This document shows, one piece after another, positions 12,111 through 37,048 of a DNA stretch of 64,000 nt (position 1 is the first letter of the stretch; the number at the start of each line of letters is the position of its first letter). Under the pieces are notes generated by a model. That model was not told where the DNA came from. It searched no databases and saw only the letters and a list, made by a program, of their open reading frames with translations. Source of the DNA: Candidatus Woesearchaeota archaeon. GTDB taxonomy: Archaea; Nanobdellota; Nanobdellia; Woesearchaeales; JACPBV01. The stretch is taken from assembly GCA_016188175.1 (NCBI GenBank), contig JACPII010000002.1:4865-68864 (forward strand). The letters are read 5' to 3'. The translations under genes were made by a program, and so were the position numbers.

Positions 12111-12126
12111 GAAACCTTTATAAATA
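12111..12126 (+). promoter_or_regulatory. Archaeal BRE+TATA promoter (GCGAAACC TTTATAAATA) driving a structured noncoding transcript and the tRNA downstream
   Basis: Consensus-like CGAAA BRE directly 5' of TTTATAAATA. No CDS downstream for ~480 bp. Confidence 0.5.
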
Positions 12127-12428
12127 AGTCGCCTTTCCAACCCACGATGGCTTTCAATCTTTCTATGTTAGAGGGTACGCTCTAGTCTTGCGTTGAAAAC
12201 CTCTTTGTGGGGGAGTGAAAGCCATGCACGGATGGATGCCCTGGTAGTGTAGTCTGGCACAGCCAAAACTGCTGCAGCAGCTATCATGAAGCCTTGTCAC
12301 GGCTTCGACTCGGGTTCAAAACATTTCTCCGCAGGAGAAATGAGCAAAGAGTGCGTTCATGTTGGATTCCGCATTCGCTCAATCCAACTTGCCTGCCGGG
12401 GAGCGTGAATGTCCCGACCAGGGCGTTC

Positions 12429-12523
12429 GGGCTCGTAGCTCAGCCTGGTAGAGCACCTGGAGGGACGGAACCCTGGTGAAGCTTTTAACCAGGTCGTCGC
12501 GCGTTCGAATCGCGTCGGGCCCA
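12429..12523 (+). tRNA. tRNA-Lys(UUU) with a ~21-nt intron at a non-canonical position (immediately 5' of the anticodon loop). Mature length 74 nt.
   Basis: Manual fold. Acceptor GGGCUCG/CGGGCCC, D arm GCUC/GAGC with G18G19, T arm GCGCG-UUCGAAU-CGCGU. Removing AGGGACGGAACCCUGGUGAAG leaves anticodon loop CUUUUAA. Confidence 0.7.
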
Positions 12524-12625
12524 TTCATCCCATCGAACGGAGTGAGATGGGATTATGAGTATGCCAGTGCCCCTTGGAATAGTCCATGAGGTTGAAACTG
12601 GGATTTGCCCATTGGTTCAATTACC

Positions 12626-30925: not shown

Positions 30926-33900
30926 ATGCGAGTTTCATCCACTTCCCTCCTGTTGATTTCTGTCGGCTTCATCCTTGCCATTCCTTTTGCTTATAGCCCC
31001 GTAATCGAGAGGGGTGGCTGCAGCCTTACCCTCAACGCAATGGCTGACGACGTCATCTGGGTTACTTTAACGAGCGGAACGGATGGAAGCATTAAAGCTG
31101 AGGGAAATCCTGGAAGTACCGGCTCTGACAGGTTTGAAAACCCCTTCAAAGCAAACCCAGGAGATATTCTCAGGGTAAGGGCGATTGACACAAAGCCCTG
31201 TGGGGCAGGGTTTGGAAAGCCTATTGGCTTTGAGTCATGGGACATTTTTAAAACGAGATGGATGGGGTATGAGCCAGCAACCGTTGAAGCAGCTTCCCCC
31301 AAGACATTCCTTGAATCACCGATAATTCTACCTAATTCGCCTGTCGGCATGAAGGTTACCAAGAATGGCAAGGATATTATCGACTACAAGATACAAACAT
31401 ACTTTGATCCGAACGATAATAAATGGAAGTTTCCGGAAGGCTGCGGAACTCCTGGGTGGTATCCAGACCCCAAGGATTTTTCTGACCGCTATCAGCCAGT
31501 ATATAAAATAGTTGACTGGTATAGGCCAGACGTGGTTGTGAAGGGGGGATATTGGGGCGACGATGGGGCGTATCATGACCCCGTCATCGAGAGAAATCCT
31601 GCAAAGGGCTATGTCTTCTACGACAGCGGAAATATTGTCTTAAGCCATACGTGCAAATGCGAAAACATTGGCTCCAGCTTTCCCACAATCCAGGGAACAT
31701 CCTCAGGAATTCTCAATGGCAAGTTTGTTGAGCTTTATGACTACTGTACTGATGGGACAGTTGACCAGCTAACAGGATTTCCCTCTGAATTTGTGTTTGA
31801 TCTCAGCTCAGATAAATATATCCCTTCCTATTTTGATTCAGAGGCGCTTAAATGGCACCCCTCTCCAAACGGAATCGCCCGAGCAGAACTCACCCATGTT
31901 GCAAAGGGTTCTTGTTCGGAGGGAGAAACGGGGCCATTGGAGATTTCCGTAAAAGAATGCCCCCAAGGCTCAAAATGTGTGGCTGGCGCTTGTTCCTGCG
32001 GCGACAGCGACAGGAAGGGGAAATATTCTAGGATTGATGTAAAGGGCACCACAACGGGATTTGATTATGGAAAGGCCCTAACCCACACCGATTTTTGTGT
32101 AACTTTTTTCGGGGATGAACAAAACAAGGGGGCATTCTATCCCTATACGACAAATTTCAAGAGTGTCGAAATCCCCTGCCCGCCAGATGAGCCGGGAAAG
32201 GGGCCATGTTACAGGGTTGTTCCCCAGGAAAACAAGAATATGGATTTACCGTCATTTGAATCTCTGCAAAAGAAGTGGAGTTCAGGCGGGGATGCTGCCT
32301 ACCAGGGCATTATGAAACTGGCAACATACGATAATAGTGGAAACAATGTTGGAAATGCCGTCATTGAAGGCGATTGCGTATATGACAAATCAGTCAAACT
32401 GAGTATAGCTCCCTGCGCACAAAGCTGCAGGGATGGAGCCTGCGTTCCGTATGAGGGGGCTAAAGTGGATATCTATCCGGCAAGAGATGAAGGAAAAAAG
32501 CAGGAATCTGGCAAGGAAATATCAGAACCATCAATCAACGAAAGGGAAGCGATAGTCTGCAAGGCAACACTTTCAAACCCTCCAAAAAACATTTATGTGA
32601 ATGTTGTCAAAGAAATTGACGGAATAAAATCAGCCTATGTGGCAAGGGGAGTTCCCCCGCCCGGCTGCAAGATTAATCCAAATTCCGCTGAATGCAGGGG
32701 ATATGTCCAATGCAAGGAAACAAACGCAGGAGTCACTTGCGTATCTCTCATTGACCCAGTGGAAGGTTCTGGCTTCCCCTACCCCCAGGTCGAAAAGATG
32801 CCATTTGATTTTAACGGAAAAAAGTGGAACCAGAGAGCGCTTCTTTCATGCGAGGTGGAGGTTGATGGAAAAAAATACACTTCCCAAAACAAAGTTAGGG
32901 TGAGGGGGAATGAAAAGAATAAGGATTTTTACCCGCAAAAAAGTGTTTTCCTTGTCCCTTTTAACGGGCTGTACCACGACGTCCTCAGCATTCTCCCTGC
33001 AGCAATTTGGGAAGACAAACAAGACAGGTATTGGTGCTCTCACCCAAAAACATCGGACAATAAAGAAGTTGGTGATAAATGTTATTACCCATTTTTGGTA
33101 TATCAAAAGGAAGATTCATTATACGACATCGAAAGCATTCGCTATTTTATCAATCAGCAATACAACTCCCTTCCCCAGGGCTCCGATGTCACCATCTTTA
33201 GCATTGGAAAATTCCTTAGTGAGTCTGGGATTAACGCAAAGGAAGTAAAAGAACTCTCTCCTTCTGACGTGTTGAACGAAAACTACTTTTGGAAGGAATT
33301 CTCAACCGTTGTTGTAGCCAATCTTGACCCCATTTCCTACAATGAAGCAATTTTGGGAGCTCAGCTTGCCTCCTACCTAAACGCCCCACTGATGTTCGCA
33401 TCGGACAGGGCAACCGCCACGTGGATAAATCTCTTCAAAAACCCTTCCAAAAAATATAGTGTGGTCCTCATGCCAGGCGTCGAACAGGGAGTGATTGACG
33501 ATATTGCAAAAAATGGCCATTTCTTGGTGAAATATGAAAATGGAGATTTTTCATATAACGATGGAAAACCTGAGCAAACCTTCAAACAGGAGGAAGATGT
33601 CCAGAAAGCATTACAGATCCACAAGCGGATTGACAAAATAATAATCGCCAACCCCTCCGACAAGCTATCCGCTTTCTGCGAGAACAATCTTCCCTTCCAA
33701 GGCCTTCCTGCCCTGAAAGAGTGGTATTGCCGAACATCGTTATCTGCCCCTATCCTCGCAGCAGGAAGGGATTGGCTGCCCACATTTGTTTATACGACAA
33801 GGTCAGCCCCAGGAATTTTCTTTTCCTCAGAAAGCAAGCAACAGGGATCAGGAACAAGGGAGGGAGGAGAAAAAGGAGCAGGCCAGGCCGAAACAGGTTC

Positions 33901-36900
33901 AACGAAGGCCGATGCAGCCTCCCAAGCACCAGCCCTTTCTCCGCCATCTAACCCGGAAGAGGAGATTGTCTCAATTGCAAAAAAACAAATTCAACCCCAG
34001 GTAGCTTCTATCTTAAGCTCATTTAAGCCAAAGTACGCCTTATTCCTTGCAGCGCCTAAAGCCATCCCGCTTAGCAAAATGAAAGGAAGTGATGGCCTCC
34101 AACGCTTATCACTGGACCGCTCCTATGTTGACCTAAATTTTGACGGGAAGGAAGACATCCCATTCGGAAGGCTCTATACAAAAACGATAACGGGAACTTC
34201 AGTGTACATGAATAGGATACTCTCAAACACCCAGCAGGAAAAGAATACATTTCTCTCTGTTGCGCACTCTTTCGAAGACCTCCAGACTCATTTTGACACA
34301 TTGGACATGCAGCTTCCATCCATGGGATACGACGAGGCTGACTGTTATCTCGCTTTTGATCCTTTAGGGAGATGCCAAAAAGGGGTTCCCCCCTCACCCT
34401 ACGACCCATACCAAGAAAAAAAAATAATATATTACGATGACCACGGAAGTTCCGACCAATGGAGCTCGACAATCCCCGCAAAGGATATTCCGCAATTGAG
34501 TTCCTCCCTCGTTATCTCAGATGCCTGCCTCACCAACGATTATTATAACTCCCCCGACGGGTATGTTTTTGGACCGGAAGCAATCGAAAAGGGAGCCCTT
34601 TCCTATCTGGGGGGTGTGGGAACTACTGCTGCCCGGGAAGGCCACATCCTGCAATCCGGAATTGGAGAAGATTTATTCAGGCTCGTTGTCAGCGAGAGAA
34701 ACCTTGACCTAGGCACTGCCCTCCAAGAGCTTTACCGGGGACTGACACCTGTAAGCAGCGACTACCTCCTCCTCGGTGACCCAACATTTACCCCATCCAT
34801 CCCAAGATTTTCATATCCTTATATTGTTAGACATGACCTCCAGGATAACCCAACATTGGGCTCCTCATTCTCTTTCCAGGTGTCAGACCAAGATGGGCCA
34901 GATAACGTTGGAGACATTAAGGTTCTCATCACAAGAAAAGAGGATAATGTCGTAAAAGAGGTCGCCCCAAAGTGCGAAAAGAGAAGCGACCATTGGTCCT
35001 GCACGATGGCATTCGATGATCTGTCTCTCATGCAAAAGGACCTTCTCGTGGAGATGAGGGCATATGACAAGAAAAACGAAAAATACGGTGCCGTCTACAA
35101 AGATGTTAAAAAAATCAAAGTTATTGAAATATCGGTCGTTGAATGCCGAATGGAGACTTCAGGCGTTGAGGGAACATGCACCGCGCATATCAAGGTTCAA
35201 AAGGACAATATCGGGGAGGTCAAATTCACCAAGCTTGAGGGGGGAATAATAAATCCCCCTTATCCAGAAAATAAAGGATGCGCATGGTCGAATAATAACC
35301 ACGAGTACCTCTGTAAGTTCACGTTTACCCCAGAAGACCCCGGGGATTACAAGATAAAGGTTGATGCAGAAACAAAATCTGTTGACGATGCTGGCAAGCC
35401 ATTTTCGGACGATGAAACGACGACATTCCGGGCATCCCCCATTGATGTCGCCAGGTATAGTTGCACAGAGTCCTTAGACCATCAAAAATGGGATTGTAAA
35501 TTAGATGTTAAGGCCAAAAAAGGGGACTTGGGCAAAGCAACGCTATCCAGCATTTCTGGGCCAGCAATTGCCCCACCAGAGCCTCAAGGAGGCTGCGTAT
35601 GGAACGAGGAAAGGGGATTAAATGTCTGCACATTCCTGTTTACCTTTCCAAAAGTTGGAAAGTATTCCCTCGTGTTTTCTGCATTCACCAATTCAATCGA
35701 TCCCAAGGACGGGAAGCCGTTCTTTGATTTTGAATATTTTGAAAAAGACCTCAACCCGATAAAGATTTCGTGGATAGAATGTTCCACTCCCAATATCGAC
35801 CAAGAGATTGTTTGCACAACCACCATGTACGTTGACCCAGCACAATGGGGGGATGCAGGGTTCTCTATTTTAGAAGGGGGGCCATATGAGCCGACACCAC
35901 TTACAACAAACTGTAAACAGGAGGGTCAAGAAAAGATAGAAGTTGTATTAAAGCCGAAGGTTAAATGCGAGACGAAATTTACTCCAAAAAGTGCTGGAAC
36001 CTACCGAATTGAGATGAAAGTGTCCACCAAACCGGCCGATGGAACCCAACCCCTAACGGGTACAGTGGAGACCACCCTAAACGTTAAAGCTATAAAAATG
36101 ACAGATATTGATTGTGGAGAATCAGTTATCGGAGCTGTTACCAAATGCATGGTCAACATTCTCGCCCCTAAAAACACATTGGGAACAGTTACCCTGGGGG
36201 CAGAGAAGGGATTTATTGACCCGGGCTCTGTTCTCGTCGAATGCCAATGGGACGGTAATAAATTTTATGACTGCGAATTCGAATTTACCCCCGGACAGGA
36301 AGGCGCACTTCTCATAAAAGTAGCCGCCGCTTCACTTTTAACAGACTCAAATAACAACCCCTATTCAGCTGAGGCCGAAAAACAGATTAATGTCGGGAAC
36401 ATCAAGATTAAGATTACCTCATGGAGCATAGTTGTTTTGGGAGTAAAAGGAAGGTTGTATTTCAAGGTTAAGGCCAAAAAAGATTCCTTTGACAGAGCAA
36501 TTTTGGAGAGGAAAGGCGGGGCAGAAGTTGATATCCCCGCTCCACAGGCGCAATGCGAATGGAATGAAGAACGGGCATTATTCACATGCAAAGCTGAATT
36601 TGTTCCCAAAGCTATAGGCTCCACCACCCTCCAGGCCACCGCATACCTAAAAGAGCCGGCAAGTAACCCTGCCGCCGCTACAGTCTCCCTTTTTGATAAA
36701 ATATCCGCATTGCAATGGGGTTTCCCTGGATGCAATCCAGCAATTATAGGAAGGAATGTTATATGTTCAATCGAGATATATTCATCCAAGGAGCTATTTA
36801 ACGGATTGACAATAAAAAAAGAAAGCGGGCCGGAGGTCGAAATTCCAGATGCGCCATCCTGCTTATGGAGGGAGCAACCCCAGCGGTTTGAATGCAAGTA

Positions 36901-37048
36901 CAGTTTTACCCCAAAAGGAACGGGAAAATTAAAGTTAGTGTTGACTGCAGAAATTCATCCCCCGGGAGGCAGCCCCATAAAGGTGAGCAAATCTCTTGAT
37001 TTCGAGCCGTTATCCATTATTAAAGATGATACCGAGGTAAAGCCATGA
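30926..37048 (+). CDS. Giant secreted/cell-surface protein (2040 aa). N-terminal signal peptide, Cys-rich N-terminal region, a clan CD (gingipain C25-like) cysteine peptidase core around residues 1150-1300 (HGSSDQW ... SDAC ... LLGDPT), a low-complexity linker, and six C-terminal ~105-aa Ig-like repeats with motif C-x-W-x5-7-C-x-F-x-F-x-P.
   Basis: ORF track. Signal peptide MRVSSTSLLLISVGFILAIPFAYS. TATA TTTTTATAAGG ~25 nt upstream (leaderless). Motif comparison from memory. Confidence 0.85.
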   Translation: MRVSSTSLLLISVGFILAIPFAYSPVIERGGCSLTLNAMADDVIWVTLTSGTDGSIKAEGNPGSTGSDRFENPFKANPGDILRVRAIDTKPCGAGFGKPIGFESWDIFKTRWMGYEPATVEAASPKTFLESPIILPNSPVGMKVTKNGKDIIDYKIQTYFDPNDNKWKFPEGCGTPGWYPDPKDFSDRYQPVYKIVDWYRPDVVVKGGYWGDDGAYHDPVIERNPAKGYVFYDSGNIVLSHTCKCENIGSSFPTIQGTSSGILNGKFVELYDYCTDGTVDQLTGFPSEFVFDLSSDKYIPSYFDSEALKWHPSPNGIARAELTHVAKGSCSEGETGPLEISVKECPQGSKCVAGACSCGDSDRKGKYSRIDVKGTTTGFDYGKALTHTDFCVTFFGDEQNKGAFYPYTTNFKSVEIPCPPDEPGKGPCYRVVPQENKNMDLPSFESLQKKWSSGGDAAYQGIMKLATYDNSGNNVGNAVIEGDCVYDKSVKLSIAPCAQSCRDGACVPYEGAKVDIYPARDEGKKQESGKEISEPSINEREAIVCKATLSNPPKNIYVNVVKEIDGIKSAYVARGVPPPGCKINPNSAECRGYVQCKETNAGVTCVSLIDPVEGSGFPYPQVEKMPFDFNGKKWNQRALLSCEVEVDGKKYTSQNKVRVRGNEKNKDFYPQKSVFLVPFNGLYHDVLSILPAAIWEDKQDRYWCSHPKTSDNKEVGDKCYYPFLVYQKEDSLYDIESIRYFINQQYNSLPQGSDVTIFSIGKFLSESGINAKEVKELSPSDVLNENYFWKEFSTVVVANLDPISYNEAILGAQLASYLNAPLMFASDRATATWINLFKNPSKKYSVVLMPGVEQGVIDDIAKNGHFLVKYENGDFSYNDGKPEQTFKQEEDVQKALQIHKRIDKIIIANPSDKLSAFCENNLPFQGLPALKEWYCRTSLSAPILAAGRDWLPTFVYTTRSAPGIFFSSESKQQGSGTREGGEKGAGQAETGSTKADAASQAPALSPPSNPEEEIVSIAKKQIQPQVASILSSFKPKYALFLAAPKAIPLSKMKGSDGLQRLSLDRSYVDLNFDGKEDIPFGRLYTKTITGTSVYMNRILSNTQQEKNTFLSVAHSFEDLQTHFDTLDMQLPSMGYDEADCYLAFDPLGRCQKGVPPSPYDPYQEKKIIYYDDHGSSDQWSSTIPAKDIPQLSSSLVISDACLTNDYYNSPDGYVFGPEAIEKGALSYLGGVGTTAAREGHILQSGIGEDLFRLVVSERNLDLGTALQELYRGLTPVSSDYLLLGDPTFTPSIPRFSYPYIVRHDLQDNPTLGSSFSFQVSDQDGPDNVGDIKVLITRKEDNVVKEVAPKCEKRSDHWSCTMAFDDLSLMQKDLLVEMRAYDKKNEKYGAVYKDVKKIKVIEISVVECRMETSGVEGTCTAHIKVQKDNIGEVKFTKLEGGIINPPYPENKGCAWSNNNHEYLCKFTFTPEDPGDYKIKVDAETKSVDDAGKPFSDDETTTFRASPIDVARYSCTESLDHQKWDCKLDVKAKKGDLGKATLSSISGPAIAPPEPQGGCVWNEERGLNVCTFLFTFPKVGKYSLVFSAFTNSIDPKDGKPFFDFEYFEKDLNPIKISWIECSTPNIDQEIVCTTTMYVDPAQWGDAGFSILEGGPYEPTPLTTNCKQEGQEKIEVVLKPKVKCETKFTPKSAGTYRIEMKVSTKPADGTQPLTGTVETTLNVKAIKMTDIDCGESVIGAVTKCMVNILAPKNTLGTVTLGAEKGFIDPGSVLVECQWDGNKFYDCEFEFTPGQEGALLIKVAAASLLTDSNNNPYSAEAEKQINVGNIKIKITSWSIVVLGVKGRLYFKVKAKKDSFDRAILERKGGAEVDIPAPQAQCEWNEERALFTCKAEFVPKAIGSTTLQATAYLKEPASNPAAATVSLFDKISALQWGFPGCNPAIIGRNVICSIEIYSSKELFNGLTIKKESGPEVEIPDAPSCLWREQPQRFECKYSFTPKGTGKLKLVLTAEIHPPGGSPIKVSKSLDFEPLSIIKDDTEVKP

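Follow-up and report, generated by a model that had tools for sequence, protein, structure and literature searches.

A strict bulge-helix-bulge motif places a predicted intron at position 30/31 of a Woesearchaeota tRNA-Lys(UUU) gene

How can a tRNA gene be interrupted immediately 5′ of its anticodon loop, away from the canonical intron site at 37/38, and still be expected to yield a proper tRNA? The question is raised by a tRNA-Lys(UUU) gene in a stretch of 64,000 nt (hereafter the window) from contig JACPII010000002.1 of a Candidatus Woesearchaeota archaeon. A scan against Rfam showed that the segment 12429-12523 of the plus strand matches RF00005 (tRNA) with 47.2 bits (E = 5.9e-07), which exceeds the curated gathering score of 29 and places the segment in the family. 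The alignment is full-length (model 1-71), and 28 nt occupy the 7-nt slot of the anticodon loop. Nothing else in the whole 64 kb matched an Rfam family, even at E ≤ 1. ARAGORN run without intron search reported zero tRNAs across the window; with intron search (ARAGORN -i), it called tRNA-Lys(ttt) at 12429-12523 with an intron of 21 nt. Splicing the segment in silico left a product of 74 nt that ARAGORN again called tRNA-Lys(ttt). Its acceptor, D and T arms are canonical, the T-loop reads UUCGAAU, and the 7-nt anticodon loop, CUUUUAA, contains U33, the anticodon UUU and a purine at 37. Because the Rfam match, the ARAGORN -i call and the clean spliced cloverleaf agree, we regard the gene as real. 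The initial annotation, which a model had made from the letters of this DNA, described a tRNA-Lys(UUU) interrupted directly 5′ of its anticodon loop by an archaeal intron of 21 nt, whose removal gives a clean cloverleaf with this same T-loop and anticodon loop, and it proposed an ARAGORN intron search as a check; that description is borne out. Taken with the geometry and the comparative data presented below, the segment is very probably a working gene for tRNA-Lys(UUU) in a Woesearchaeota (DPANN) archaeon, with a 21-nt archaeal bulge-helix-bulge (BHB) intron at position 30/31.

The spliced product by itself leaves the site of the intron ambiguous by one nucleotide. Because a G is repeated at the junction, exactly two removals of 21 nt are equivalent, that of AGGGACGGAACCCUGGUGAAG (31/32 in standard numbering) and that of GAGGGACGGAACCCUGGUGAA (30/31). 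This tRNA-Lys carries nucleotide 17a, and linear counting turns 30/31 and 31/32 into 31/32 and 32/33, which is why the site given by the initial annotation (31/32 or 32/33) and by ARAGORN (32-33) differs from standard numbering. We scored every possible split against BHB geometry, assuming that each bulge is cut behind its second nucleotide, the accepted rule for the archaeal splicing endonuclease EndA. The split at 30/31 alone gave a full anticodon stem, a central helix with 4/4 pairs and 4-bp helices on both sides. Introns of related species at 37/38 and 59/60 served to calibrate the rule, and the majority of them came out with 4/4 central pairs under it. A true 32/33 placement was also considered and rejected, as it leaves the loop AUUUUAA and only 2/4 central pairs. 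Hence the earlier assignment was right about the length of the intron and about a site other than 37/38; its numbering does not stand, and BHB geometry fits 30/31 only.

A canonical intron at 37/38 with a different anticodon would be an alternative way of reading the same letters. Removal of GGAACCCUGGUGAAGCUUUUA does leave a 7-nt loop, and a lenient 4-bp 'central helix', AGGG:CUUU with two G-U pairs, can be drawn beside the anticodon stem. However, the loop so obtained, AGGGACA, is without the invariant U33, and its position 37 is a C; the anticodon GGA (Ser) would be set on a Lys-type body whose variable region has 5 nt, and no inner helix forms (h′ = 0). ARAGORN -i does not choose this solution, and it fails in relative L011 and in 24 other relatives with the same class of intron, all of which have the loop CUUUUAA. 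We give this alternative practically no credence. The initial annotation had named an intron at 37/38 with another anticodon, or rejection of the tRNA by covariance models, as the outcomes that would speak against it; RF00005 accepts the gene, and the 37/38 loop is unworkable.

The motif recognized by the archaeal splicing endonuclease consists of two 3-nt bulges around a 4-bp helix (PMC6379350). At the exon-intron boundaries of the tRNA-Lys gene the sequence reads 5′-AGAG-CACC-(UG/G)-AGGG-(ACGGAA)-CCCU-GGUG-(AA/G)-CUUU-3′, where a slash within a bulge marks the predicted cut. The central helix is CACC:GGUG, the bulges are UG/G and AA/G, and the flanking helices h (AGAG:CUUU) and h′ (AGGG:CCCU) have 4 bp each, which is the strict hBHBh′ form. 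The gene holds no second copy of this strict motif; its sole occurrence coincides with the 30/31 splice pair. When the intron was shuffled 200,000 times, a 4-bp central helix together with an inner helix of 3 bp or more arose at a frequency of 9.5e-5. The intron is not of a relaxed type (hBH, HBh′ or BHL, in which a bulge or a flanking helix is missing or disrupted and an EndA of broad specificity is required), nor is it a group I or group II self-splicing intron, having only 21 nt and no non-tRNA Rfam match at E ≤ 1. Because the hBHBh′ motif is strict, the tRNA-Lys intron needs no relaxed recognition and, going by the motif, should be cleavable by any archaeal EndA. The earlier attribution to a lineage with relaxed BHB recognition was apt in one respect, since the host lineage is known for disrupted tRNA genes, and misplaced in the other, since relaxed recognition is superfluous for this intron.

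The predicted folding of the precursor also gave a BHB-type conformer. The minimum-energy fold takes this form at -40.0 kcal/mol, compared with -34.1 kcal/mol when the cloverleaf forms and the intron stands off it as a side hairpin; the BHB-type conformer is favoured because the 3′ strand of the anticodon stem, CCAGG, also pairs with CCUGG of the D-loop and thereby lengthens the outer helix. The folding energy of the 95 nt is ordinary when compared with shuffled sequences (z = -1.35), so the evidence lies in the geometry and the comparative data and not in the energy.

From this geometry a course of splicing can be proposed. In the precursor, the 3′ strand of the D-stem and the first bases of the anticodon stem (nt 21-28) would leave the cloverleaf, whereupon AGAG (21-24) would pair with CUUU of the anticodon loop (32-35) and CACC (25-28) with GGUG of the intron. 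The AGGG/CCCU hairpin of the intron would complete the hBHBh′ structure, with the splice sites held in the bulges UG/G and AA/G. EndA would then cut each bulge after its second nucleotide, a ligase of the RtcB type would join G30 to G31, and the exons would refold into the cloverleaf with the loop CUUUUAA. The predicted mature junction is ...CACCUG-GCUUUUAA..., i.e. ...GAGCACCUG-GCUUUUAACCAGG... Ordinary archaeal tRNA splicing at an unusual place, by a known and unchanged mechanism, is the best-supported account of the gene.

Several points weigh against this account. A search of the window with phmmer in six frames found no EndA homologue (best E = 3.6), a regular expression found none either, and phmmer likewise found none in 803 kb of related loci; the query in these searches was the EndA of M. 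jannaschii, validated against PDB 1a79. RtcB was screened for by a crude regular expression only, and the presence of the enzymes is assumed from the literature on the lineage. The position of the cuts rests on established knowledge and on the internal calibration with the introns of relatives. Lastly, the minimum-energy fold slips the central helix by one, pairing C25 with G31 instead of with the intron G, a non-productive register that is possible in the window only, because nucleotide 31 is a G there. As to the lineage, a survey covering DPANN archaea, one Woesearchaeota genome among them (Kaneta et al. 2018, PMC5829648), described numerous disrupted tRNA genes and an alpha4-type EndA that bears the additional loop L3.

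We then compared the gene with its orthologues. A scan with RpoB″, restricted to one genome per species, yielded 80 syntenic loci (L001-L080), in which 65 complete orthologous tRNA-Lys(UUU) genes were recovered just upstream of rpoH, about 300-450 nt upstream of the rpoB″ match; with the window this makes 66 genes. The loop CUUUUAA is common to the orthologues of the 65 related species. Introns in the 66 genes are located at 19/20 (n = 22), 20/21 (n = 11), 30/31 (n = 26, including the window), 37/38 (n = 24) and 59/60 (n = 41); the number of introns per gene is zero in five, one in 16, two in 26 and three in 19. The 30/31 intron is thus found in 25 of the 65 relatives, with the geometry seen in the window. 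In all 26 genes of this class, 4/4 central pairs and 5/5 pairs of the anticodon stem are obtained for the 30/31 split only, and in 18 of them a cut at 31/32 breaks the anticodon stem. The close relative L011, where a 31/32 cut also breaks the stem, reads CACCUG/AGUC...GGUGAA/GCUUUUAACCAGG and can be spliced at 30/31 only. All 26 genes share the outer helix AGAG:CUUU, and in 24 of them CACC:GGUG forms the central helix; one of the other two has CAUC:GAUG, the exon change being matched in the intron, and one has CAUC:GGUG, with a wobble pair. The 3′ bulge is AA/A in 22 relatives, UG/A in three and AA/G in the window. Between these nearly invariant exon halves, the intron cores range from 17 to 46 nt and are unrelated in sequence and unalignable, meaning that the motif is conserved while the core varies in each of the 26 genes.

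These comparisons bear on two further explanations. One is that the gene is dead, a pseudogene with an unspliced insertion of 21 nt, as might be imagined of a gene that standard ARAGORN misses and of a window without an endonuclease gene. A strict BHB motif lying exactly at the boundaries that restore the tRNA (P ~1e-4 for a shuffled insert) speaks against it, and so does the closest relative, L081, whose RpoB″ is 97% identical. The tRNA-Lys exons of L081 are 100% identical to those of the window, while its intron, of 23 nt, has a different loop and retains the inner helix as AGGGA:UUCCU, and the flanks have diverged as well. Moreover, the gene is interrupted at the same site with the same geometry in 25 other species, all arms are intact, and its place beside tRNA-Asp and rpoH is conserved. 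A dead gene is in our judgement very unlikely. The other explanation is an error of assembly or sequencing, for instance a chimeric join or a duplicated segment, which deserves a thought given that the source is metagenome-assembled and that L011 shows an anomalous join between the tRNA-Lys T-loop and rpoH. However, the same architecture appears in independent assemblies (L081 and 25 species representatives), and the insert is no duplicate of neighbouring sequence but is complementary to exon nt 25-28 precisely as the motif needs. The chance of such an artefact appears to us negligible.

The history of the 30/31 intron was considered on a tree of RpoB″. This tree, a weakly resolved neighbour-joining tree from RpoB″ alone, puts the intron in one large clade and separately in the lineage of the window and L081, whose nearest neighbours are without it. 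Presence and absence are patchy among close relatives. The distribution points to either an old age with losses or a repeated gain. It is also conceivable that the intron is spliced as described above and has in addition a selected role, as a shield against integrating elements, a checkpoint or a guide for modification. Retention of the site in many species would agree with such a role, and the targeting of tRNA genes by mobile elements is a subject of reviews (PMC3218864; PMC4033280). The unrelated cores of such different lengths and the patchy presence argue to the contrary, however, and the 21 nt of the window hold little beyond the structure required for excision. We consider a selected role improbable, and excision without one remains our preferred account.

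No gene among the 66 UUU orthologues combines a 30/31 with a 37/38 intron. Structural mutual exclusion, both motifs using nt 32-35, was entertained as a reason and refuted by tRNA-Lys genes with the anticodon CUU. A metagenome scan for the 30/31 architecture with this anticodon gave 30 contigs (L082-L111), among them about 24 genuine tRNA-Lys(CUU) genes with a 30/31 BHB intron; L087, L089, L098, L105, L109 and L110 were chance matches in coding DNA. Of the ~24 genes, 14 have an additional 37/38 intron, with the central helix CUCU:AGAG (e.g. L094).

Some observations on the relatives' loci are recorded here for their own sake. At about 612-700 of L011, the T-loop of tRNA-Lys (GTTCGAATC) joins the interior of rpoH (…HSKLSDKERKE…), so that neither the 3′ end of the tRNA nor the 5′ end of rpoH is present; a deletion or a fault of assembly is indicated. 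ARAGORN -i reported nothing in 44 of the 80 relatives' loci, and it misnamed intron-bearing tRNA-Lys or tRNA-Asp genes as tRNA-Stop(tta), tRNA-Glu(ttc), tRNA-Ser(aga), tRNA-Met, tRNA-Ile or tRNA-Thr in L012, L027, L028, L008, L003, L045, L046, L065 and others. Many contigs with an rpoB″ of the Woesearchaeota type (72-80% identical to that of the window) bear titles like 'uncultured Methanosarcinales archaeon', 'Candidatus Aminicenantes bacterium' or 'Syntrophales bacterium' (L002, L007, L008, L061, L073 and others); these are probably mislabelled or contaminated bins.

The features of the tRNA-Lys gene and of the region upstream of it are collected in Table 1.

Table 1. Coordinates of the tRNA-Lys(UUU) gene, its predicted splicing motif and the upstream features, numbered from the first letter of the window; a slash within a bulge marks the predicted cut.
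Feature	Position	Strand	Description and basis
tRNA-Lys(UUU) gene, unspliced, 95 nt	12429..12523	+	Rfam RF00005, 47.2 bits; ARAGORN -i; discriminator A at 12523; CCA not encoded
Exon 1, standard positions 1-30 including 17a	12429..12459	+	In-silico splicing; BHB geometry and relatives
Intron, 21 nt, GAGGGACGGAACCCUGGUGAA, site 30/31	12460..12480	+	Sole placement with 5/5 anticodon stem, 4/4 central helix and 4-bp flanking helices
Exon 2, positions 31-73	12481..12523	+	Anticodon loop CUUUUAA 12482-12488; anticodon UUU 12484-12486
Outer helix h, 5′ strand AGAG, exon nt 21-24	12450..12453	+	Pairs with CUUU 12482-12485 (anticodon-loop nt 32-35); 26/26 genes of the class
Central 4-bp helix, 5′ strand CACC, exon nt 25-28	12454..12457	+	Pairs with intron GGUG 12475-12478
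5′ bulge UG/G	12458..12460	+	Predicted cut between 12459 and 12460; BHB geometry
Inner helix h′, AGGG 12461-12464, loop ACGGAA 12465-12470, CCCU 12471-12474	12461..12474	+	Present in the minimum-energy fold
Central helix, 3′ strand GGUG, intron	12475..12478	+	Split enumeration
3′ bulge AA/G	12479..12481	+	Predicted cut between 12480 and 12481
tRNA-Asp(GUC) gene, two non-canonical introns	12238..12425	+	3 nt before tRNA-Lys; read by eye, BHB enumeration, ARAGORN on the spliced form
tRNA-Asp D-loop intron, 22 nt, relaxed motif	12259-12280	+	UCUG vs CAGC, 3/4 central pairs; almost no outer helix; inner CAGC:GCUG
tRNA-Asp T-loop intron, 91 nt, site 59/60	12321-12411	+	UUCA:UGAA, 4/4 central pairs; T-stem as outer helix
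TATA-like box TTTATAAATA, candidate promoter	12117..12126	+	From the sequence; ~26 nt before the leader hairpin; conserved in L081 and L011
Leader hairpin, ~79 nt, closing helix AUGGCUUUCA / UGAAAGCCAU	12147..12225	+	Between the putative promoter and tRNA-Asp

A tRNA-Asp gene is often found directly upstream of tRNA-Lys in the relatives (ARAGORN -i), and the window has one with two introns of its own. Spliced in silico, it gives a product of 75 nt that ARAGORN calls tRNA-Asp(gtc); unspliced, the segment 12238-12425 has no Rfam match and receives no call from ARAGORN even with intron search. The gene is shared with 50 relatives, many of them with both intron sites. In several of these the D-loop motif is canonical, CCUG(GA/U)...CAGG(AA/C), and because of this the boundaries of the D-loop intron in the window, where the motif is relaxed, are supported. 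It is this D-loop intron, and not the one in tRNA-Lys, that argues for a broad specificity of EndA in the organism.

Further upstream lies a hairpin that could be a leader or a small RNA. The segment 12140-12237 folds at -32.5 kcal/mol (z = -2.68), and the closing helix of the hairpin covaries in L011 (AUUAGUCU/AGACUAAU); the hairpin has no Rfam match in the 64-kb scan at E ≤ 1. The two tRNA genes are probably co-transcribed, and from their arrangement we infer a single transcript of leader, tRNA-Asp and tRNA-Lys that would start from the putative promoter. A scan for promoters and terminators of bacterial type was uninformative for an archaeon. Between tRNA-Lys and rpoH, an inverted repeat, ATCCCATC ... 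GATGGGAT, was noticed by eye at 12527-12553 of the plus strand; it is not conserved in L081 and could be a hairpin for 3′ processing or termination. The genes around the locus are Spt5/NusG, SecE, FtsZ and an FKBP-type isomerase on the minus strand, and RpoH, a split RpoB (B″ and B′), RpoA′, RpoA″ and a protein of the L7Ae/L30e family on the plus strand. An identical RpoB″ is entered as 'Candidatus Woesearchaeota archaeon', its close homologues all come from Woesearchaeota or Nanoarchaeota bins, and the mean G+C content of the window is 47.6%. Elsewhere in the window there is an ORF of 2,040 aa with a hydrophobic N-terminus (30926-37048, plus strand).

How does this intron compare with those already known? 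Archaeal BHB tRNA introns at non-canonical positions were reportedly described by Marck and Grosjean in 2003 and by Sugahara and colleagues in 2008. The intron studied here agrees with such introns in the two 3-nt bulges around a 4-bp helix, in the irrelevance of the core sequence and in the possibility of several introns per gene; they are mostly from Crenarchaeota (Thermoproteales) and Nanoarchaeum, whereas the present one belongs to a tRNA-Lys(UUU) of Woesearchaeota and has a strict motif. The sites 30/31, 20/21 and 59/60 are on a published list of non-canonical intron sites (Yoshihisa 2014, PMC4090602). A closer parallel is offered by split tRNA-Lys genes. Those for tRNA-Lys(CUU) are said to have been reported by Randau in 2005. 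In Nanoarchaeum equitans and Staphylothermus marinus/hellenicus, the split tRNA-Lys(CUU) is joined at 30/31 through a canonical hBHBh′ motif, a coincidence of site that has been termed intriguing (Chan et al. 2011, PMC3218864). The amino-acid family, the exact 30/31 break and the hBHBh′ at the junction are the same as in our gene; N. equitans is also a DPANN archaeon, and some records label close relatives of the window 'Nanoarchaeota archaeon'. In contrast, the split genes are two halves transcribed separately and joined in trans, whereas here a single gene has a short cis intron. The isoacceptor differs too, CUU in the split genes against UUU here, although cis introns at 30/31 also occur in the metagenomic tRNA-Lys(CUU) genes.

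With respect to the number of introns, the nearest counterpart is found in the Thermoproteales, whose multi-intron tRNA genes are said to have been described by Sugahara in 2008 and Fujishima in 2010. These genes have up to three introns each, at many positions, with fast gain and loss between related species (PMC4033280). The tRNA-Lys orthologues of Woesearchaeota resemble them with zero to three introns at five sites, and differ in belonging to another phylum; the endonuclease of the Thermoproteales has the (alpha-beta)2 architecture and a Crenarchaea-specific loop. The survey of Kaneta et al. (2018, PMC5829648) concerns the same superphylum and is in line with a window that has one detected non-canonical intron and a double-intron tRNA-Asp missed by the tools, but it gives proportions at the level of genomes and includes a single Woesearchaeota genome. 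Our literature search returned no per-gene account of Woesearchaeota tRNA introns beyond that study. Both the site 30/31 and the disrupted tRNA genes of DPANN archaea are published, and the tRNA-Lys intron of the window is a further example of a known phenomenon.

The findings have consequences for annotation. The tRNA-Lys is missed by ARAGORN without intron search, and the double-intron tRNA-Asp by both Rfam and ARAGORN, so that a genome of this kind would wrongly seem short of essential tRNAs. An apparent tRNA gap of this sort has been suspected in DPANN genomes (Kaneta et al. 2018, PMC5829648), and automated tRNA counts for the genomes of relatives will be wrong. With five sites and zero to three introns per gene across 66 species, Woesearchaeota provide a second natural system, beside the Thermoproteales, in which to study where archaeal tRNA introns are placed and how they come and go. 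That tRNA-Lys is interrupted at 30/31 repeatedly also ties these cis introns to its split genes in N. equitans. We offer, as a tentative idea that we hold to be rather doubtful, that tRNA-Lys is structurally predisposed to breakage at 30/31. The outer helix of the BHB comes free in tRNA-Lys, because AGAG of the exon (21-24) is complementary to loop nt 32-35 (CUYU, i.e. CUUU or CUCU); with this helix built in, an insert need only end with the complement of bases 25-28 and two nucleotides. The comparison of these genes suggests that half of the motif being built into tRNA-Lys is a simple reason for the recurrence of the site. In a stronger version of this idea, the cis introns described here may represent the ancestral state behind the split gene of N. 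equitans.

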